From assembly GCF_029227855.1 (NCBI RefSeq), contig NZ_CP074356.1: a stretch of 64,000 bases of DNA. The stretch is one strand, 5' to 3'. The notes beneath the pieces are model-generated. The model was not told the origin of the DNA, did not search any database, and was given only the letters and a program-made list of their open reading frames with translations. This document shows positions 2,717 to 52,502 of the stretch, piece by piece. This DNA comes from Escherichia coli (lineage in GTDB: Bacteria > Pseudomonadota > Gammaproteobacteria > Enterobacterales > Enterobacteriaceae). Both the position numbers and the translations under genes were made by a program. Within the stretch, counting starts at the first letter, position 1, and each line of letters opens with the position of its first letter.

Positions 2717-2747
2717 TGATGACTCCGGGTAACGATGTCAGGTTAAT

Positions 2748-2763
2748 GGCAAAAGGCGTGCCA
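2748..2763 (-). promoter_or_regulatory. candidate sigma54 (-24/-12) promoter for the lafB (fliD) operon
   Basis: Minus-strand sequence TGGCACGCCTTTTGCC matches TGGCACG-N4-TTGC; lies about 30 nt upstream of the lafB start codon. Confidence 0.5.
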
Positions 2764-2850
2764 ATATTTTTTATGTGAATAATCAATAGATTGAAAAACA
2801 GGCGGAAATGACGTTTCCGGTCTGGCGGAAAAAAGCCTGCCGCAGAAAGC

Positions 2851-4271: not shown

Positions 4272-5165
4272 ATGCAAAGCACTATCAGGAAACATTTATC
4301 CCTTGCTAAGGTAAACTCAACTATGAGTATTATTATCAACAACTGGCGGATGGACCCGTCGCTTAATGCCTTAATACATTGCGAAACGGGTGAAACACGT
4401 CGTCTCGGCGAATACCATTTTATTTTGCTGGAAACATTAGCAAAAAATGCCGATGTGGTTTTATCGCGATCTTATTTATGTGCCGAAGTATGGAAGAACC
4501 GCATTGTCGGCGGTAACAGCCTGCCGACGGCGATCCACGCTCTGCGCGTTGCCATTGATGATGACGGCAAGCAACAGAACATTATTAAAACTATCCCGAA
4601 AAAAGGGTACCTGTGCAATAAAGAGTATGTGTCTTTGCCGGAGTCATCGCCTGCGGAAGCGCTGATTATTACCGACCAGATACAGGAAACAGTACCAGAA
4701 GAGATATCTTCTACAACACCGCCTGTGCCTGTTAGAAAAAAACATAAAGGACTGATGGGGTTAGCGTTGACCGCGGCTGTTATATTTATTGGCTCGACCG
4801 TGGGGTATTCACACTTGAAAAGTACACCTGACGCCCCGCAACTGGTAAAAGAGTCAATTAACAGTCCAAGAATAAAAATATTTCATCTTAGTTCTGGAAA
4901 AGAAAATAATTCCGCACCGTTACTGTCACAAACCCTCGCACCAGGAAAAGACAAACTCGATAATTTATTGTCAGCGCATAATATGACAATGACAACCTAT
5001 TATAAATATGTTCGTAACCGACTGGAGAGTGATATTGTTCTGCGCAACCAGTGCAATGGTAGCTGGCAATTAACCTTTAATGTGGATGAGTGGCAGAATA
5101 GCGATATTAATAGCGCGATGTATCAGAATTTAGAGAAGTTGTTAAATACTGTGCAGAAATGCTGA
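4272..5165 (+). CDS. ToxR/CadC-like membrane-anchored transcriptional regulator (winged-helix OmpR-type DNA-binding domain, one TM segment, periplasmic domain); possibly the Flag-2 lafZ
   Basis: ORF track; N-terminal region ...YLCAEVWKNRIVGGNSLPTAIHALRVAIDD... resembles trans_reg_C winged helix; hydrophobic stretch GLMGLALTAAVIFIGSTVGY; AT-rich gene and upstream region. The true start may be the ATG at 4323. Confidence 0.6.
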   Translation: MQSTIRKHLSLAKVNSTMSIIINNWRMDPSLNALIHCETGETRRLGEYHFILLETLAKNADVVLSRSYLCAEVWKNRIVGGNSLPTAIHALRVAIDDDGKQQNIIKTIPKKGYLCNKEYVSLPESSPAEALIITDQIQETVPEEISSTTPPVPVRKKHKGLMGLALTAAVIFIGSTVGYSHLKSTPDAPQLVKESINSPRIKIFHLSSGKENNSAPLLSQTLAPGKDKLDNLLSAHNMTMTTYYKYVRNRLESDIVLRNQCNGSWQLTFNVDEWQNSDINSAMYQNLEKLLNTVQKC

Positions 5166-14694: not shown

Positions 14695-15030
14695 TTATTT
14701 CCCTTCAATGGCCTCTCTGATGCCGCTGATTTGCAGATTCAGGAAGGTCAGACTGCTTTGATAATCCATACTATTTTGTGAAAACCGCGCCTGTTCGCTG
14801 TTCAGCTCCACGGTGTTGCCATCTTCCGACGGCTGCATCGGCACGCGGTACTGGACATCCACCGCCGCGTTATTTGCCCGTTGCATCTCCCTGGCAAAAT
14901 CAATATCTTTAGCCTTGAAATTTGGCGTATCGACGTTCGCCAGATTCGCAGTCAGTAGCTCGGTCCTCTCAAGACGTAACTTCACTGCCTGCGGATGTAC
15001 TCCCAATGCCTGTTGAAAACTGATCCCCAT
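14695..15030 (-). CDS. lfgB: rod protein FlgB (Flag-2 LfgB)
   Basis: ORF track; start moved to the internal ATG at 15030 (MGISFQQALG...) because the predicted sigma54 promoter would place the transcription start near the first ATG at 15060. Confidence 0.8.
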   Translation of the reverse strand: MGISFQQALGVHPQAVKLRLERTELLTANLANVDTPNFKAKDIDFAREMQRANNAAVDVQYRVPMQPSEDGNTVELNSEQARFSQNSMDYQSSLTFLNLQISGIREAIEGK

Positions 15031-15066
15031 TTCCTGCGTCACTCCTGCTTCAATCCGCATACGCTA

Positions 15067-15082
15067 GGCAATTACCGTGCCA
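15067..15082 (-). promoter_or_regulatory. candidate sigma54 (-24/-12) promoter for the flgB operon
   Basis: Minus-strand sequence TGGCACGGTAATTGCC matches TGGCACG-N4-TTGC; in the short divergent flgB/flgA intergenic region. Confidence 0.55.
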
Positions 15083-15111
15083 TTTTTTAAGTGACTGATG
15101 AGAAAGGGTTT

Positions 15112-15849
15112 ATGAGTTTTCAATTTTGCAGGCGGAAGTTTTATTTCCTCCTGGCGCTGGCCTTACCGGGCTACGCCGCCGTCTACCCCGTGCAACACAG
15201 CGCGCGGGAACAAGTCAACGCCCAGGTGCTGAATGCCGCGAGCCAGCAGATTGAATCGCTGGCGCAGCAGCGGCAGTGGCATGACTATCGCTACACCTTT
15301 AAGGTCTACATTCCCTCGCAGATTGCGACCGCTGCGCCCTGTGCTGCGGCACCCGGCGTCACGCTGACGTCGCCTGTGGACATCGCCCTCAACCGCATGA
15401 ACTTCACCGTCAGTTGCCCGCAAAGCTGGCAGATGAACGTGGCGGTGCGCCCGGATGTGCTGGTGCCGGTGGTGATGACAAAGTCACTGGTTGCCCGCGA
15501 TACGCCGCTCACGGCGAATGATGTGGAGCTGAAGCCCTACAACGTCAGCGCCCAGCGTCGCGATGTGTTGATGGAGCTTGATGACGCAATTGGTTTAAGC
15601 AGTAAGCACGCGCTGCAGCCGGGCAGGCCAATCACCAAAGAAGAGCTGGTCTCTCCGGTACTGATCGAGCGCGATCAGCCGGTGATGATTGTTTACCAGA
15701 ACGCGGGGATCACCGCCTCGATGCCCGGCGTGGCGCTGAAAAATGGCCGCAAAGGCGAGATGGTGAAAGTACGTAACGCAAGCAGCCAGCGGGTCATCAG
15801 CGCGATGGTGGCGGAAAGCGGCGTGGTGACAACGGTAAGCGCGGAGTAA
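15112..15849 (+). CDS. lfgA: P-ring assembly chaperone FlgA (Flag-2 LfgA)
   Basis: ORF track; start set at the ATG at 15112 (MSFQFCRRKFYFLLALALPGYAA, signal-like); divergent from flgB. Confidence 0.7.
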   Translation: MSFQFCRRKFYFLLALALPGYAAVYPVQHSAREQVNAQVLNAASQQIESLAQQRQWHDYRYTFKVYIPSQIATAAPCAAAPGVTLTSPVDIALNRMNFTVSCPQSWQMNVAVRPDVLVPVVMTKSLVARDTPLTANDVELKPYNVSAQRRDVLMELDDAIGLSSKHALQPGRPITKEELVSPVLIERDQPVMIVYQNAGITASMPGVALKNGRKGEMVKVRNASSQRVISAMVAESGVVTTVSAE

Positions 15850-16646: not shown

Positions 16647-16773
16647 CGCGAATACCTTCCCCCATCGCGGAAATGGATTTTCCGCCTGATTCACAATCCT
16701 TTGTTTTTGATTATAAAAATTCCCGGCACGCTTATTGCACATTCCGCAAAGTAATAAAGACTGGAAGCCACCT

Positions 16774-17703
16774 ATGAGTTTTATTGAATGTTACGAACCG
16801 GAATACGTGCGCAATTTTATGACGCAATATCCCGATTCGCCTTTGTACATCCGCAAGGTGTGGAAAAACGAGATTCGCCAGAGCCTGATGCTGACAGAGC
16901 CAGAAAGCTGCGAAGCGGTGCTCAACGATGCCAGGGCCTTTGATTTACAGCTCACCTACCGCCCGGCGGAAGATAATGCCGCAGAACTCTCCGCGCGCGA
17001 TGCGATAGTAAACCAGGTCATTTTGAGCACCCTTACGCTCCCCGATTTACCCCCGGAGCTTTCACTGTACGCCGTCGGGATTTTGCTCTCCCGCGCCAGC
17101 AAAATGCCGGGCAGAGACGGAGATATTCTTGCCCGCTTGACGACGCTGCCACAGGCGCTGGCCGCTCATGCACAAAAAGGCACGCTACAGGCACAGTTCG
17201 CCCAGTTGCCGCCTGTACCACAGCTGGCGCGCCAACTGGTGACGCTGCTCGGCAGTTGTGCGTTTGACTGGTCGATTCTGCCGGAAAGCCCGCGCAAAAC
17301 TTCCCTGCCGTTGCAGATGCCTTTGCTGGCGCTACATGACGCCAACAGCGAAGCCCTGTTGCAACAGCAGCTTCAGGCACAGTGGCAAACCACCTGGCAA
17401 CAGCATTTTGCCACCGCGCCCTGGATGATGTGTAACTGGCTGATTTACCGCGTTTACCATGAGGTGATTGGACAGGCAGACGGAGCAGATTATTGCCCGC
17501 TGGTGTGCGATTTTTATTTTATCCGCACGTTAATCAGTTTATGGACGCTGGATGGTTCTCCGCTGCGGAAGGAGGATATTTTCGCCCTTTTTGCGGTGTT
17601 TGAACGCTGGCGAGAGAGTGAAAATGCGCTGTTTATTCGCCAGCAAATTCAGTCGTTATGTGCCGCCGACCCGCTGCTTTCAGCGTTTTCGCTGCTGACG
17701 TGA
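16774..17703 (+). CDS. hypothetical protein, about 309 aa, in the flgA-flgM-flgN operon context
   Basis: ORF track (16735-17703); start placed at the ATG at 16774 (MSFIECYEPEY...) with a GGAAG Shine-Dalgarno; I recognise no family. Confidence 0.5.
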   Translation: MSFIECYEPEYVRNFMTQYPDSPLYIRKVWKNEIRQSLMLTEPESCEAVLNDARAFDLQLTYRPAEDNAAELSARDAIVNQVILSTLTLPDLPPELSLYAVGILLSRASKMPGRDGDILARLTTLPQALAAHAQKGTLQAQFAQLPPVPQLARQLVTLLGSCAFDWSILPESPRKTSLPLQMPLLALHDANSEALLQQQLQAQWQTTWQQHFATAPWMMCNWLIYRVYHEVIGQADGADYCPLVCDFYFIRTLISLWTLDGSPLRKEDIFALFAVFERWRESENALFIRQQIQSLCAADPLLSAFSLLT

Positions 17704-17717
17704 AGCCGCTCTCGATC

Positions 17718-17753
17718 GGTCCCCTCGCCCCTTCGGGGAGAGGGTGAGGGGCA
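17718..17753. repeat. GC-rich imperfect palindromic intergenic repeat, copy A
   Basis: ggtcccctcgccccttcggggagagggtgaggggca; its reverse complement aligns closely with the copy at 27433-27474. Confidence 0.6.
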
Positions 17754-17809
17754 AAGCACGCACAGCCCTCCTTACCCATCAAATTAACCCCTTAACTCAC
17801 CTAAACACC

Positions 17810-20281
17810 ATGCCAACACCAACCCTCATCAAAACACTCGCCACTCACCGCGAAAAACCGTTCGTCAGCGTCGTCACGCCCACATGGAACCGTAGCGCAT
17901 TCCTGCCGTACCTGCTCTATATGTACCGCTATCAGGATTACCCGGCAGACCGCCGCGAACTGGTCATCCTCGACGACTCGCCGCAAAGCCATCAACACAT
18001 CATCGACCGCCTGACCAATGGCACACCGGAAGCCTTTAACATCCGCTATATTCATCACCCGGAAAAACTGCCACTGGGCAAAAAACGCAACATGCTCAAC
18101 GAACTGGCGAGCGGCGAATACATCCTCTGCATGGACGATGACGACTACTACCCGGCAGATAAAATCTCTTACGCCATCGCCATGATGCAAAAACACCGGG
18201 CGCTCATCTCCGGTTCCGACCAGATCCCCATCTGGTACAGCCACATCAATCGCATCTTCCAAAGCCGCAGCTTTGGCTCACATAACATCCTCAACGGCAC
18301 CTTTTGCTATCACCGTAACTACCTGAAAAAGCACCGTTACGACGATGATTGTAATTTAGGCGAAGAGAAAAGTTTCACCAACAATTTCAGCGTTAACCCG
18401 CTACAACTGCCCGGCGAGCGCACGATTCTGTGTATCTCGCACAGTCACAACACCTTTGATAAAGATTTTATTCTCGGGGCTAGCACGCCAGTAAACGCGG
18501 CGCTTACGGATATCGTCCGCGATCCGCTGCTGCGCAATGCTTATCTGAGTCTGCATAACGCCACTCATCACCAGGCGATCGATCAGGTCGTACTGATCAA
18601 TCTGGATAAACGCCCGGATCGCTTACAGCAGATCCGTGAAGAACTCACATTGCTGTATATTCCGCCTGAGAAGATCACCCGCCTTGCCGCCAGTGAAAAT
18701 GAAAACGGTCAACGGGGTCGCCGCCAGTCACACTTGCAGGCGCTGCGCCTGGCGCAACAGCACGGCTGGCAAAACTACCTGCTGCTGGAAGATGACGCAG
18801 TTATTCTCAAGCAGGAGAAACATATTCAGGTACTGAACACGCTGCTCGCGAGCCTGGCGAAAATTCCCTGGCAGGTGATGATCCTTGGCGGCGAAATTTC
18901 GCAGGGAACGATGCTAAAAAGTTTGCCGGGGCTGGTGCACGCGCGGGACTGCCGCAAAGTGTGCGCTTATCTGGTGAACAGTCGCTACTACCCGCAACTG
19001 GCGCAGCAGATGAGCCACAATGAACACTCGCTGGAAGACGGCTGGCAGCCGCTGCTACGCGCCGACAAATGGCTGGCCTGTTACCCGAGCCTTAGTTATC
19101 AGCGACCGGGCTTTAGTGATATCGAGAAAAAAGTGACCGACAACATTGCTCACTATTTCAATAAGTTACCCGTTATCACAAAGCCATCCGCATTACCCAT
19201 CGCCGACACCATCGGCTTTTTTATGGAAACCTCCTTCCACTACGCGCTCTACCGCCCAATCATCACTGCTCTACAGGTGCAGGGGCAGAGCTGCACGCTG
19301 GTGATCAATGACCGCGTGTTTAAACCGTTTCTTGATGAGATGCTGGAAACACTGAAAAACATCGACGATCCGCAGCTTAAAGGAATGCGCTTATCTGAAA
19401 TGCAGGCACACGGTCAGCGGGTGAAATGCCTGGTCAGCCCCTACCACACGCCCGCGCTCAATGGCCTGGCAGCGGTGAACGTTCGCGCCATGTACGGCTT
19501 AGCCAAAGAGACGTGGAACCACGCCGACTGGAACCGTTTTTATCAACGCATTTTGTGTTACAGCCACTACAGCCAGCGGGCGCTGGCGCATTTCGGCAAT
19601 GCAAAAGCAGTCGGCAACCCGCGCTTCGACGCCTGGCATAACGGCACGTTTGCCCGCACTCTGCCGGAAAATATTCAACCCGATTCCCGTAAACCTACGG
19701 TGCTCTATGCCCCCACGTTTGGCGCATTAAGCTCCCTGCCCCACTGGGCAGAAAAATTAGGCCGCTTAAGTGGCAATGTGAATCTGATTTGCAAACTGCA
19801 CCACGGCACCTGCTCGCGCCCGGAAGAAGCGGCATCGCTGGCCCTGGCGCGCAGGCATTTAAAACAGCGCACCGACTCCGCCCGCCACACGCTGGCGCTG
19901 CTGGCAAAGGCCGATTACGTGCTGACCGATAACAGCGGCTTTATTTTCGATGCTATTCACGTTGATAAGCGGGTGATCCTGCTCGACTTTCCGGGCATGG
20001 CAGCGTTGCTCGACGGTGAGAAAAGTTACTCCACGCCGGAGAGCGCCGATCAGCAAATCCGCGAAATATTGCCGGTGGCTCATGATATGGCAGAGTTGCG
20101 TTACTTGTTGTCAGAGGCGTTTGACTGGGGGGCGGTGCAGGCGCGGCTTACGAAGATTCGCCATCACTATTGCGATGCGTTTATGGATGGCAAAGCGGGA
20201 GAACGGGCGGCGATGGTGATTGTGGAGGCGCTGGCGGACAAGGAATCGTCAGGGATATGTCGATATAATTCGATTTTTTAA
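17810..20281 (+). CDS. multidomain glycosyltransferase, about 823 aa: N-terminal GT2-like, central GT25-like, C-terminal CDP-glycerol glycerophosphotransferase (TagB/TagF-like)
   Basis: ORF track (17744-20281); start set at ATG 17810 (MPTPTLIK...). N-terminus VSVVTPTWNRSAFLP...LDDSP...CMDDDDYY (DXD motif); middle VVLINLDKRPDRLQQI...LLLEDDAVI; C-terminus TVLYAPTFG...KLHHGT...VLTDNSGFIFDAIHVDKRVI. Domain calls by eye, unverified. Confidence 0.7.
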   Translation: MPTPTLIKTLATHREKPFVSVVTPTWNRSAFLPYLLYMYRYQDYPADRRELVILDDSPQSHQHIIDRLTNGTPEAFNIRYIHHPEKLPLGKKRNMLNELASGEYILCMDDDDYYPADKISYAIAMMQKHRALISGSDQIPIWYSHINRIFQSRSFGSHNILNGTFCYHRNYLKKHRYDDDCNLGEEKSFTNNFSVNPLQLPGERTILCISHSHNTFDKDFILGASTPVNAALTDIVRDPLLRNAYLSLHNATHHQAIDQVVLINLDKRPDRLQQIREELTLLYIPPEKITRLAASENENGQRGRRQSHLQALRLAQQHGWQNYLLLEDDAVILKQEKHIQVLNTLLASLAKIPWQVMILGGEISQGTMLKSLPGLVHARDCRKVCAYLVNSRYYPQLAQQMSHNEHSLEDGWQPLLRADKWLACYPSLSYQRPGFSDIEKKVTDNIAHYFNKLPVITKPSALPIADTIGFFMETSFHYALYRPIITALQVQGQSCTLVINDRVFKPFLDEMLETLKNIDDPQLKGMRLSEMQAHGQRVKCLVSPYHTPALNGLAAVNVRAMYGLAKETWNHADWNRFYQRILCYSHYSQRALAHFGNAKAVGNPRFDAWHNGTFARTLPENIQPDSRKPTVLYAPTFGALSSLPHWAEKLGRLSGNVNLICKLHHGTCSRPEEAASLALARRHLKQRTDSARHTLALLAKADYVLTDNSGFIFDAIHVDKRVILLDFPGMAALLDGEKSYSTPESADQQIREILPVAHDMAELRYLLSEAFDWGAVQARLTKIRHHYCDAFMDGKAGERAAMVIVEALADKESSGICRYNSIF

Positions 20282-20359
20282 ACATGTCGTTGGAATACGT
20301 TTATGCCATCGACATGTTTTAGGGATATGTCGAAAAAACGCGATTTTTTAAACATATTT
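20251..20359. other. structured intergenic element: two ~39-bp direct repeats bracketing a 10-bp-stem hairpin, between convergent glycosyltransferase and cytidylyltransferase genes
   Basis: Direct repeats agggatatgtcga...cgattttttaaacat at 20251-20289 and 20321-20359; inverted repeat aaacatgtcg (20280-20289) / cgacatgttt (20310-20319) with 20-nt loop. Confidence 0.6.
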
Positions 20360-26293: not shown

Positions 26294-27280
26294 TCAGGAG
26301 AAAACTTCGATACCTTGCTTGCGCATGGAGGCCAGTCGATAGCGCAGTGCGCGCGGGGTAATGCCTAACAGGTTGGCGATTTTGCTGCGGTTGCCCTGAT
26401 ATTTACGCATCAGGTCGGCGATATATTGATATTGCGCGCTTCGTCCGTGCTGGCCTAAATCGCAGGTTTCAGCAATGTGGACGGCGGGCTGAACAGGCCA
26501 TTGCAGTTCGCTGCGGTCGGCAACGTCCGTTTCCGGCAGGCCTAAGGCGTCCGGGTAAATTACGCCGTCGCGGTTTAAAATCATTCCCCGCTGAATGGCG
26601 TTCTCCAGCTGGCGCACGTTGCCGGGCCAGCGGTAATTGAGCAGCGCCCGGCGGGTAGATTCTGAAAGGGTGATATTTTTCACCAGCACCGTGGAGTATT
26701 TTTTAATAAATGACTCTGCCAGCGGAATAATATCGTTCAGACGTTCACGCAGCGGCGGCATGGTAATAGGGATTACCGCAAGACGATAATAGAGATCTTC
26801 ACGAAAACGCCCTTCGGCGACTTCCTGCTCAAGGTTTTTATTGGTACAGGCAATCAGGCGAAAATTGAGTTTAATTTGTCGGTTGCTGCCTAATCGCTCA
26901 ACCTGCTGTTCCTGCAATACGCGTAATATTTTGACCTGTAGCGCCAGCGGCATATCGCCAATTTCATCGAGCAATAAGGAGCCGTTATTCGCCAGTTCCA
27001 TTTTTCCTGGCACGCTGGCAATTGCGCCGGTAAATGCACCTTTGTCGTAGCCAAATAAGGTAGATTCCAGCATATTTTCCGGGATCGCCGCGCAGTTCAC
27101 GCCGACATAGGGTGCGCTTTCATTTTCACCAAAGGCTACGGTGTGAATATATTTTGCCACGCACTCTTTGCCCGCGCCGGTTTCGCCCTGAATGAGCACC
27201 GGCACGTTAAAGGCGGCGACACGCTTTGCCAGAGTAAAAGCGTTAATGCTGGAAGCGGCAGTTGCAATAAGTTCAGACAT
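26294..27280 (-). CDS. lafK: sigma54-dependent transcriptional activator without receiver domain (LafK-like)
   Basis: ORF track, 328 aa; AAA+ sigma54-interaction domain (GETGAGKE Walker A, GAFTGA-type loop) and C-terminal HTH; divergent from the fliM operon. Confidence 0.85.
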   Translation of the reverse strand: MSELIATAASSINAFTLAKRVAAFNVPVLIQGETGAGKECVAKYIHTVAFGENESAPYVGVNCAAIPENMLESTLFGYDKGAFTGAIASVPGKMELANNGSLLLDEIGDMPLALQVKILRVLQEQQVERLGSNRQIKLNFRLIACTNKNLEQEVAEGRFREDLYYRLAVIPITMPPLRERLNDIIPLAESFIKKYSTVLVKNITLSESTRRALLNYRWPGNVRQLENAIQRGMILNRDGVIYPDALGLPETDVADRSELQWPVQPAVHIAETCDLGQHGRSAQYQYIADLMRKYQGNRSKIANLLGITPRALRYRLASMRKQGIEVFS

Positions 27281-27432
27281 AGGGTGAACGATATAAGTAG
27301 CGACAGAAAACAGGATGTTCTGAAGCGTATCACCGGCGGGATTAACAAGTTCGAATTAAACGATAATAAAAATATTATTTGATGGTAAACAATGAGTTAG
27401 ATATTAATACTGTTAATTGCGACATCTGTGAT

Positions 27433-27474
27433 GCCCCCTCACCCTAACCCTCTCCCCGGATGGGGCTAGGGGAC
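27433..27474. repeat. GC-rich imperfect palindromic intergenic repeat, copy B (inverted relative to copy A)
   Basis: gccccctcaccctaaccctctccccggatggggctaggggac aligns with the reverse complement of 17718-17753, with small insertions. Confidence 0.6.
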
Positions 27475-27652
27475 AGACCGCAGACTGATTGGCGAAAATC
27501 ACTCCCATTAAGCAATTAATCGATTAATTATTTTTTCATCCTATTAATAATTTGCCCCTTTCACTCCCCCTCTATTTAATACCTCACCTTGTGTCACTGC
27601 CGGATTTGCGTGCACAAAATCGCCCATACCATTACAGCAGAGAAAGTAAGCC

Positions 27653-29893: not shown

Positions 29894-30676
29894 ATGCGCA
29901 CAAGCGACGTTACGCAACTGATGGATCTGGCGCTGGGGCTGTGGTTTCCCTTCGTGCGCATTATGGCGTTTCTGCGCTATGTGCCGGTGCTGGATAACAG
30001 CGCCCTGACCGTGCGCGTGCGGATTATTTTGTCGCTGGCGCTGGCAATCATCATCACGCCGTTGATCCCCCATCCCATTCCCCACGATCTGCTTTCACTC
30101 AACAGCCTGATCCTGACGGTGGAGCAAATTTTATGGGGCATGTTGTTCGGGCTGATGTTTCAGTTTCTGTTTCTCGCGCTACAACTGGCCGGACAAATTC
30201 TCTCGTTCAATATGGGGATGAGCATGGCGGTGATGAACGACCCGAGCAGCGGCGCATCGACCACCGTGCTGGCGGAGTTAATCAACGTCTATGCGATCCT
30301 GCTGTTTTTTGCCATGGACGGGCATCTGCTGCTGGTAAGCGTGCTGTATAAGGGCTTCACCTACTGGCCGATTGGTAACGCGCTGCATCCGCAAACCCTG
30401 CGCACCATCGCGCTGGCCTTTAGCTGGGTGCTGGCGTCCGCATCACTGCTGGCGCTGCCGACCACCTTCATCATGCTGATTGTGCAGGGCTGCTTTGGCC
30501 TGCTCAACCGCATCGCGCCGCCGCTGAACCTCTTTTCGCTCGGCTTTCCCATCAACATGCTGGCGGGGCTGGTTTGCTTTGCCACCCTGCTCTACAACCT
30601 GCCGGATCACTATCTGCATCTGGCGAATTTTGTGTTGCAGCAACTCGACGCGCTGAAAGGTCACTATGGCGGATAG
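29894..30676 (+). CDS. lfiR: export apparatus protein FliR (Flag-2 LfiR)
   Basis: ORF track (29843-30676); start at ATG 29894 immediately after the fliQ stop; polytopic membrane protein. Confidence 0.85.
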   Translation: MRTSDVTQLMDLALGLWFPFVRIMAFLRYVPVLDNSALTVRVRIILSLALAIIITPLIPHPIPHDLLSLNSLILTVEQILWGMLFGLMFQFLFLALQLAGQILSFNMGMSMAVMNDPSSGASTTVLAELINVYAILLFFAMDGHLLLVSVLYKGFTYWPIGNALHPQTLRTIALAFSWVLASASLLALPTTFIMLIVQGCFGLLNRIAPPLNLFSLGFPINMLAGLVCFATLLYNLPDHYLHLANFVLQQLDALKGHYGG

Positions 30677-31805
30677 CAGCAGCGAAGAAAAAACAGAGAA
30701 ACCCTCGGCGCAAAAGCTGCGTAAAGCGCGTGAAGAGGGGCAACTGCCGCGCTCGAAGGATATGGGGCTGGCAGCGAGCCTGTTTGCAGCGTTTGTGGTG
30801 ATCTCCAGCAGTTTTCCGTGGTATGCCGATTTTGTGCGCGAGAGTTTTATCAGCGTGCATCAGTACGCGCAGGAGATTAATAACCCGCAGGTGATCGGTC
30901 AGTTTCTGCGCCACCACCTGTTAATTCTCGGCAAGTTTATCCTTACGTTGCTGCCGATGCCCGCCGCCGCGCTGCTCTCTTCGCTGGTGCCGGGCGGCTG
31001 GCTGTTTCTGCCGAAAAAAATCCTCCCGGATTTCAGCAAAATTAGCCCGTTAAAAGGCATTGGGCGTCTGTTTTCCAGTGAACATCTGGCGGAAACGGGA
31101 AAGATGACGGTGAAGTCTGCCGTGGTGCTGGTGATGCTGTGGGTAAGCCTGCGCAATAACTTTGCCGCCTTTCTCGGCCTGCAGGCGCTGCCGTTCAAAC
31201 TGGCGATGAATGACGGTTTGTCGCTCTACGCCAGCGTGATGCGCAACTTTGTCATCCTGTTTATTTTCTTTGCGCTTCTCGACGTGCCGCTGGCGAAAGC
31301 CCTGTTCACCAAAGGGCTGAAGATGACCAAACAAGAACTGAAAGAAGAGTACAAAAATCAGGAAGGCAAGCCGGAAGTGAAGGCGCGCGTGCGGCGGCTG
31401 CAACGGCAGCTGGCGATGGGGCAAATTCGCAAAGTGGTGCCAAAGGCCAACGTGGTGATCACCAACCCGACCCACTACGCCGTGGCGTTGCAGTATGACC
31501 AGTCGCGTGCCGCCGCGCCGTTTGTGGTGGCGAAAGGCACCGATGAAATCGCCCTCTATATTCGCCAGGTCGCTGCTGAAAGTCAGGTGGAAGTGGTCGA
31601 GTTCCCGCGGCTGGCGCGCTCGGTTTACTATACCACTCAGGTGAATCAGCAAATTCCTTTTCAGCTTTACCGGGCTATCGCCCACGTTCTGACCTACGTC
31701 CTGCAAATGAAACACTGGCGCGAGGGCGCACAGCCGCGCCCGGCCCTGAACAGACATATTTCCATTCCCAAAGAGGTGCTTAAACTGGATGGCGAAAACA
31801 ACTAA
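30666..31805 (+). CDS. lfhB: export apparatus protein FlhB (Flag-2 LfhB)
   Basis: ORF track, 379 aa; conserved NPTH autocleavage motif (…VVITNPTHYAVAL…). Confidence 0.9.
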   Translation: MADSSSEEKTEKPSAQKLRKAREEGQLPRSKDMGLAASLFAAFVVISSSFPWYADFVRESFISVHQYAQEINNPQVIGQFLRHHLLILGKFILTLLPMPAAALLSSLVPGGWLFLPKKILPDFSKISPLKGIGRLFSSEHLAETGKMTVKSAVVLVMLWVSLRNNFAAFLGLQALPFKLAMNDGLSLYASVMRNFVILFIFFALLDVPLAKALFTKGLKMTKQELKEEYKNQEGKPEVKARVRRLQRQLAMGQIRKVVPKANVVITNPTHYAVALQYDQSRAAAPFVVAKGTDEIALYIRQVAAESQVEVVEFPRLARSVYYTTQVNQQIPFQLYRAIAHVLTYVLQMKHWREGAQPRPALNRHISIPKEVLKLDGENN

Positions 31806-52001: not shown

Positions 52002-52502
52002 ATGAGCAAAAAATTTGAAGGCAGCGTCGCGCCTCGCGAGCGTATTAATATATCGTATGTCCCAAAAACAGATGGCCAGACGGCTGAAGTTGAACTTCCG
52101 CTTAACATGCTCGTTGTCGGCGATACCGGAAATACGCAGGAAACATCCCCACTGGATGAACGTCAGGCAGTTTCCGTTAACAAGCACAATTTCGGTGCAG
52201 TGATGGCTGAAGCAGCCATTGGCCTCAATTTTACTGTCCCCGCCACGCTGAAGGGAAGCACAACAGACGATGAACTGAATGTGGCGCTGAATATCAAATC
52301 ACTGGATGATTTTTCACCAGATAGCGTGGCCCGGCAGGTTCCGGAAGTGAATAAATTGCTGGAACTGCGTGAAGCACTGACTGCACTGAAGGGGCCGATG
52401 GGTAACCTTCCGGCATTCCGTACCCAGCTCCAGGCATTGCTGGAAAATGAAGAGTCCCGCGAGCAGTTGCTCAAAGAAATCGGCCAGGTGAGCAATAAAT
52501 AA
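52002..52502 (+). CDS. tssB: T6SS sheath small subunit TssB (VipA)
   Basis: ORF track, 166 aa, MSKKFEGSVAPRERINISYVP... Confidence 0.9.
   Translation: MSKKFEGSVAPRERINISYVPKTDGQTAEVELPLNMLVVGDTGNTQETSPLDERQAVSVNKHNFGAVMAEAAIGLNFTVPATLKGSTTDDELNVALNIKSLDDFSPDSVARQVPEVNKLLELREALTALKGPMGNLPAFRTQLQALLENEESREQLLKEIGQVSNK

Follow-up and report, generated by a model that had tools for sequence, protein, structure and literature searches.

A compact region at positions 15056–15150 of the 64,000-nucleotide stretch of Escherichia coli DNA analyzed here (the window) very likely constitutes a complete enhancer-dependent sigma-54 promoter, which would drive the lfgBCDEFGHIJKL operon of a lateral-type flagellar locus. 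An outline of the process that we propose is as follows: initially, sigma-54 holoenzyme would bind the −24/−12 element at 15067–15082 as a closed complex. LafK, an activator with an AAA+ domain and a Fis-type HTH, would bind a dyad at 15132–15150, the center of which, at −85, shares a helical face with the dyads of all relatives and sits among the codons for the signal peptide of lfgA, the divergent gene. An IHF-like A/T block at −32 to −44 would bend the short spacer into a loop of about 60 bp so that LafK could contact sigma-54 and the open complex could form. Transcription would then start near 15056, and translation of FlgB would begin at the 15030 ATG, which is preceded by AGGAG as a Shine-Dalgarno sequence.

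The identity of the locus is evident from its genes. NCBIfam profiles name the neighbors FlgB, FlgC, FlgA, FlgM, LafA, FliD and a sigma-54 activator, and the lateral flagellin encoded in the window scores 664 bits with the LafA-specific model, the cut-off of which is 440 bits. The annotated order is fliD-lafA ... flgL-flgB / flgA-flgM-flgN, methylase, glycosyltransferase, fliJ-fliE, sigma-54 activator and fliM-flhB. The locus is thus the E. coli Flag-2 (lateral-type) flagellar locus, in which the lfg/lfi/laf order is present, and its genes are named here according to the Flag-2 nomenclature (PMC6993521). Therefore, the genes flanking the control region are lfgB and lfgA and do not belong to the primary flagellar regulon; this identity was missed by an earlier sequence-only reading, which took them as flgB and flgA. 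The first gene of the lfgBCDEFGHIJKL operon, lfgB, occupies 14695–15030 on the minus strand and encodes the FlgB rod protein of 111 aa, as indicated by profiles, RefSeq and homologues, and the divergent lfgA occupies 15112–15849 on the plus strand and encodes the FlgA P-ring chaperone of 245 aa, as indicated by profiles and annotation. The cognate type of activator is also present: a LafK-type AAA+ enhancer-binding protein of 328 aa, recognized by its profile domains and by annotation, is encoded at 26294–27280 (minus strand) and is the sole sigma-54 activator encoded in the locus. It comprises an AAA+ Sigma54_activat domain (residues 6–172), an AAA lid and a Fis-type HTH_8 domain (residues 284–317), without an N-terminal regulatory domain.

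The segment 14000–16700 is 100% identical to E. coli JNEC-KY178, and this Flag-2 segment is matched in 1279 of 5426 complete E. coli genomes. Several features were observed in these comparisons. The coordinate offset relative to JNEC-KY178 moves by 15 bp within the glycosyltransferase gene (window 17700–20300), and flhB, which carries a PGAP frameshift flag in that best-matching genome, is an uninterrupted ORF of 379 aa in the window (30666–31805). Another E. coli sequence, NZ_CP168949.1, matches the query on the flgB side only, and its annotation passes from a flagellar basal body protein into the T6SS gene tssG, which suggests a deletion joining Flag-2 to the adjacent T6SS cluster. Many Flag-2 loci are regarded as cryptic or degraded, and to our knowledge the regulation of Flag-2 in E. 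coli is essentially unstudied.

The −24/−12 element, TGGCACGGTAATTGCC, lies on the minus strand at 15067–15082, with its GG at 15081–15080 and its GC at 15069–15068. It matches TGGCAC-N5-TTGC at 10 of 10 positions with the canonical GG-N10-GC spacing, and its −12 C is 38 nt ahead of the ATG at 15030. Taken alone, the exact motif is weak evidence, as the 64 kb contain two copies where 0.39 would be expected and 7 of 100 shuffles reach that number, and no enrichment was seen in the 64-kb window when one mismatch was allowed. Both exact sites are correctly oriented, intergenic and directly 5′ of Flag-2 operons (lfgB and fliD/lafB). When the window was scored with a matrix built from 14 independent published Vibrio sites (PMC9817140, Table 2), fliD/lafB reached 18.4 bits and lfgB 17.8 bits, the third-ranked score being 13.2 bits.

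A FlgB alignment scan of species-representative genomes provided a comparative set of 80 loci, one per other species, spanning Pseudocitrobacter, Citrobacter, Yersinia, Pantoea, Vibrio, Aeromonas, Photobacterium, Rheinheimera and Pseudoalteromonas. TGGCAY-N5-TTG[CT] is found in the flgB direction in all 80 other species, its −12 C being 36–91 nt before the flgB start, and the flgB-direction element exceeds the 99th percentile of background in 71 of them. Because of this conservation, together with the matrix rank and the orientation, the motif is far beyond chance. The sequence-only reading had placed a consensus sigma-54 promoter upstream of flgB on the minus strand at 15067–15082, and this is borne out by the exact motif, by a score among the top two and by retention across 80 species; it had also put the flgA start about 80 bp away, which agrees with an ATG at 15112 (not 15113) and a gap of 81 bp (15031–15111). 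As a whole that reading is supported in part, and the parts supported are TGGCACGGTAATTGCC as a sigma-54 promoter for lfgB and the second ATG as the real start.

The window carries a C at −11 (TTGCC), where most E. coli have TGGCATGGCGATTGCTT instead. This allele is rare: over 14960–15260, identity to the window is 99% or more in one E. coli genome and 95–99% in 1216. Differences between the alleles are concentrated at promoter position −21, in the spacer and at −11, and the GG and GC are invariant in the aligned E. coli alleles. The FlgB protein (WP_000512950.1) is the same in JNEC-KY178 and three other E. coli genomes fetched.

Evidence for promoters of this type has come from other lateral systems. 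The flgB2 (VPA0264) site of Vibrio parahaemolyticus, ATGGCACGTATCTTGTTTG, is bound by RpoN in EMSA, and flgB2 and its downstream genes (flgB2C2D2) are expressed less in the delta-rpoN strain (PMC9817140). In the Vibrio loci TGGCAYGNATCTTGT lies 39–42 nt ahead of flgB-L, in agreement with the published VPA0264 site. The PflgB promoter of Aeromonas hydrophila belongs to class II, which is up-regulated by LafK (PMC5013049). As judged from its sequence, the lfgB promoter is the E. coli Flag-2 orthologue of this LafK/sigma-54 class II flgB-L promoter of Vibrio and Aeromonas.

Upstream of the −24 element lies the IHF-like block, CATCAGTCACTTA, at 15088–15100 on the minus strand with its center at −38, which has two mismatches to the loose consensus WATCAANNNNTTR and overlaps the ribosome-binding region of lfgA. 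With up to one mismatch allowed, 61 of the 81 sequences contain WATCAANNNNTTR in the interval that separates the dyad from the −24 element, about 5% being expected, and exact matches occur at the flgB promoter in three loci (L005, L017 and L020). The center of the block is at −38/−39 on the promoter strand in Enterobacterales and at −50/−51 on the opposite strand in the marine groups; the lafB promoter in the window has an exact consensus at 2781–2793, also with its center at −50 and on the opposite strand.

How, then, is lfgA transcribed? With 29 bp between the −24 element and the start codon of lfgA, and with no gene preceding lfgA on its strand, the lfgA promoter either overlaps the lfgB promoter or fires from within lfgB. 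The earlier statement that the two promoters must overlap stands as far as geometry forces it over these 29 bp, but no lfgA promoter of any type is recognizable. A consensus scan of 14800–15400 gave no sigma-70-like promoter, and the best match of a lenient sigma-70 scan near lfgA was 7/12; a window pattern search gave no sigma-28-like promoter near lfgA, and a sigma-28 scan gave weak matches only. The best sigma-54 score in the flgA direction was 0.9 bits (within the 120 bp upstream of flgB), which is the background level. When structured RNA was sought in the region, nothing in Rfam came anywhere near its gathering score. The A/T bases at 15088–15100 could instead serve as the −10 element of an lfgA promoter that is weak or needs an activator and that has a very short leader, in which case the divergent promoters would overlap and compete. 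We consider this quite possible, although it is the less probable use of these bases, since a promoter is needed here for a gene without an upstream neighbor on its strand, the overlap is forced by the space available, and the block reads TTTAAG, TATAAC or TATAAA towards lfgA a few nucleotides from the −24 element. However, the E. coli version has no A at position 2 and no −35 element (hence the combined 7/12), the full 13-nt IHF pattern is position-specific and extends beyond a hexamer, and the same pattern recurs at the promoter of lafB, which lacks a divergent neighbor. The two readings of the block, as a −10 element and as an IHF site, are not mutually exclusive.

The control region probably reaches beyond the 81-bp gap into lfgA. 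There, a dyad that the earlier reading missed, GAGGAAATAAAACTTCCGC, occupies 15132–15150 (center −85), within lfgA codons 7–13 (RRKFYFL), and is a candidate LafK enhancer. The dyad, with the consensus GCGGAAR-N5-YTTCCGC, was spotted by eye and then tested by pattern searches; an inverted-repeat finder applied to the three promoter regions reported only the lafA terminator and not the dyad, because the arms of the latter are too short. Comparison of the regions upstream of lfgB and lafB gave GGAAA-N6-TTCCGCCTG as common to both. Perfect copies of GGAAA-N6-TTCCGCC number exactly three in 64 kb, at 2801–2818 (minus strand), 15131–15148 (minus strand) and 16669–16686 (plus strand), and each of them precedes a sigma-54 site that lies on its own strand (18.4, 17.8 and 10.2 bits, respectively). 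When up to two mismatches were allowed there were 20 matches against 7 expected, a number attained by none of 100 shuffles, and TTCCGCCTG by itself has five matches in the window against 0.74 expected. Another dyad-like sequence, GCTGAAGTTGAACTTCCGC, was noticed in tssB (52083–52101, one mismatch, codons AEVELPL) and was rejected as probably a coincidence, because it lacks a sigma-54 partner and the T6SS VipA peptide that it encodes looks conserved.

Across species, the core GGAAR-N5-YTTCC is present with up to one mismatch in 78 of 81 flgB upstream regions, at −74 to −76, −85 to −88 or −95 to −99, the background being 7e-5 per position. These position classes (about −75, −86 and −97, with 19, 25 and 34 sites) are spaced by one helical turn, and they follow taxonomy: Vibrio has −75, Enterobacterales −86, and Photobacterium, Rheinheimera, Pseudoalteromonas and Aeromonas −97. 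In all 64 loci with an assignable flgA start the dyad is within the flgA ORF, but not always in the same frame, since 41 read xGG-AAR (Arg-Lys), 22 read G-GAA-G (Glu) and one uses the third frame. The dyad lies in the signal-peptide codons of lfgA at lfgB, and in non-coding DNA at lafB and the methylase gene. Its occurrence in two lfgA frames and in non-coding DNA indicates that the constraint is on the DNA and not on the protein. What the sequence comparisons show is the presence of the elements, how they are conserved and phased, and, by homology, where FlgB starts.

The two sister promoters have the same layout of dyad and sigma-54 site. The fliD/lafB promoter (2746–2843, minus strand) has its sigma-54 site at 2746–2764 (18.4 bits), the IHF-like site at 2781–2793 mentioned above, and two dyads at 2802–2820 (−74) and 2825–2843 (−97) with two helical turns between them; the region comes directly after the lafA terminator palindrome at 2851–2876. 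The methylase promoter (16667–16741, plus strand) has the dyad at 16667–16685 (−74), which is a perfect GCGGAAATGGATTTTCCGC, and the sigma-54 site CCGGCACGCTTATTGCACA at 16723–16741 (10.2 bits). It is located between flgN and the lysine-N-methylase/glycosyltransferase genes, with a leader of 24 nt to the ATG at 16774. This post-flgN pair is replicated in five other species (L002–L006), in which the dyad is 74–75 nt from the predicted start and is perfect in L002–L004 and L006, with two mismatches in L005. These findings suggest that the predicted regulon includes the flagellin-modification genes as well. In the divergent lafK/fliM-type (lfiM) intergenic region (27281–27652, 372 bp), no sigma-54 site of at least 9 bits was found, which fits the report that the fliM-L operon of V. 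parahaemolyticus is LafK-independent (PMC3930126).

What protein binds the dyad? The dyad is probably an enhancer for LafK, considering that LafK is the only sigma-54 activator of the locus and that the dyad accompanies its sigma-54 sites. In the searchable literature no LafK binding site or motif was found described, and a prior mention in key primary papers is possible. In E. coli, the dependence of the promoter on sigma-54 and LafK, the binding of LafK to the dyad, the use of IHF and the exact start site are what we infer. Plesiomonas lateral genes function without LafK, possibly via FlaK (PMC11242183). An alternative is that the dyad is a real cis-element bound by another protein, such as an lfgA repressor or activator or the LafZ-like transcriptional regulator encoded at 4272–5165, and that LafK acts from solution or from another site. 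The dyad starts 20 nt and ends 38 nt into lfgA, a classic roadblock position, some Enterobacterales have extra dyads without sigma-54 sites, and enhancer-independent flagellar activators such as FlgR exist (PMC3930126). Nevertheless, this alternative is unlikely, since the dyad keeps a fixed and helically phased distance to sigma-54 sites, both at three promoters of the window and in 78 of 81 species, the lafB and methylase dyads are non-coding with no divergent gene to regulate, and LafK has retained its Fis-type HTH. The extra dyads occur in one subgroup of Enterobacterales (L014, L016, L020–L022 and L026), at the flgA/flgM boundary and near the flgE start, about 890 nt 5′ and about 1750 nt 3′ of the flgB start, and no sigma-54 motif was found within 40–130 nt of them.

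A single palindromic sigma-54 element might also serve both directions: on the plus strand, AGGCAATTACCGTGCC could drive lfgA from about 15092, as the C at −11 gives 15067–15080 a GG-N10-GC on that strand and the implied start would leave a leader of 20 nt including the lfgA ribosome-binding site. We rejected this highly improbable arrangement on the grounds that the flgA-direction score does not rise above background, while the flgB direction reaches 17.8 bits, and that the C at −11 is specific to the rare allele, being missing from the common E. coli allele and most species; among the 80 species no flgA-direction element is conserved, and the best scores are at background level. The flgAMN-L operon of A. 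hydrophila is also said, in work attributed to Wilhelms et al. (2013), not to be dependent on sigma-54 or LafK, which counts against a bidirectional element.

The lfgB promoter in its minus-strand reading also bears on the start of FlgB. At sigma-54 promoters the C of the GC doublet counts as −12, and by this rule the predicted +1 is at about 15056 (15054–15058, minus strand), which gives a leader of 26 nt up to the ATG at 15030. The long flgB ORF (14695–15060, minus strand, 121 codons) begins upstream of this point and contains the ATG at 15030 as an in-frame second ATG. Its first ATG (15058–15060, minus strand) is at −4 to −2 of the predicted +1, and would therefore fall outside the transcript. 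This upstream ATG, which is not the start, is kept in E. coli and Pseudocitrobacter only, and reading of the Citrobacter sequences shows an equivalent ATG followed by an in-frame stop. In the long ORF, the NCBIfam FlgB models begin aligning at residue 11; of the 120 best homologues, nearly all are 111–116 aa in length and span just its residues 11–121; and in an alignment of 14 homologues 13 open with M-G/S-I-S-F at the position of the second ATG. The Shine-Dalgarno-like AGGAGTGA (15039–15046, minus strand) is 8–11 nt before the ATG at 15030, its AGGAGTG block is also found in close relatives, and an SD-like tetramer precedes the homology-defined flgB start in 64 of 81 sequences. The argument made earlier that the real flgB start is the second ATG thus agrees with the predicted +1, the FlgB profiles, the homologue starts and RefSeq. 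It is right yet not new, since RefSeq/PGAP already annotates the 111-aa WP_000512950.1 from 15030. That the motif is a chance match, or that FlgB starts at 15060 from another promoter, is scarcely credible: the marginal enrichment of the exact motif and an in-frame upstream ATG conserved within E. coli would allow it, but it is effectively refuted by the conservation of position and strand in all 80 species, with homologues and profiles lacking the 10-residue extension, a Shine-Dalgarno sequence preceding the second ATG and no sigma-70-like promoter in 14800–15400.

The layout may be compared with those of better-known systems. In the Flag-1 system of E. coli and Salmonella, the flgAMN and flgB operons likewise diverge from one short control region, and the flgA and flgB promoters there are sigma-70 promoters activated by FlhD4C2. 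In contrast, the lfgB/lfgA region has no sigma-70-like promoter and has a sigma-54 element and a candidate enhancer instead; it is unrelated to the FlhDC/sigma-70 region of the primary flgA/flgB genes. IHF-assisted sigma-54 promoters include nifH of Klebsiella pneumoniae, glnHp2 of E. coli and Pu of Pseudomonas. The order of upstream activator sequence (UAS), IHF site and −24/−12 element in these promoters, and the strict helical phasing of the UAS, resemble the predicted layout at lfgB, where the IHF site is a putative one, whereas the layout here is far more compressed (center of the candidate UAS at −74 to −98) and the candidate UAS of lfgB is in coding sequence. An enhancer inside the codons of a divergent gene is ordinary in kind.

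The closest resemblance is to the lateral loci of Vibrio and Aeromonas, which have divergent flgAMN-L and flgB-L operons in orthologous order (PMC3658858) and a LafK-type activator encoded in the locus. The −24/−12 element is in the same place in E. coli as in flgB-L of V. parahaemolyticus (flgB2, VPA0264) and PflgB-L of A. hydrophila. The E. coli system differs in that its LafK of 328 aa lacks the N-terminal domain, its dyad is one helical turn further out than that of Vibrio (−85 versus −75), and the center of its IHF-like block is at −38, on the promoter strand, as against −50 on the opposite one. The known LafK/sigma-54 model is extended and not overturned, and the novelty, a modest one, is the phased dyad inside lfgA together with the IHF-like block.

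The Caulobacter FlbD/ftr system, in which a flagellar sigma-54 activator acts on promoter-proximal dyads, offers a possible model for the LafK site in lfgA. The same type of site activates a sigma-54 promoter and represses a neighboring early promoter there (ftr4 at fliF; PMC3930126). The motif and the protein subfamily are unrelated to those of Flag-2, however, and repression of lfgA is purely hypothetical; that LafK bound within lfgA gates lfgA is speculation by analogy. We put forward tentatively, and with more doubt than confidence, the wider proposal that the dyad is the LafK box of all lateral (Flag-2/Laf) systems, where LafK would activate flgB-L and gate or block flgAMN-L. The idea of such a double duty arises because the dyad is kept in the flgA-L signal-peptide codons in two reading frames. 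If it is true, LafK would activate flgB-L through an IHF-bent loop of 60 bp while performing the second task from the same codons, and transcription of flgAMN-L would be gated jointly by LafK and by the sigma-54 closed complex and IHF occupying the start region of flgA. An FlbD/ftr-like switch of this kind would order the expression of the chaperone and anti-sigma factor relative to that of the rod and hook.

The lfgB dyad offers a clean example of a candidate enhancer encoded within a signal-peptide coding sequence, and it provides a concrete candidate for the LafK site from E. coli to Vibrio and Aeromonas. The minimal predicted LafK regulon in the window would consist of lfgB-L, the operon beginning with lafB and the flagellin-modification genes. 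Flag-2, which is present in about a quarter of complete E. coli genomes and in many Enterobacterales, has often been taken to be cryptic; that three of its operons carry intact and conserved sigma-54 promoters, each with a matching predicted enhancer, speaks for selection on its regulatory wiring.
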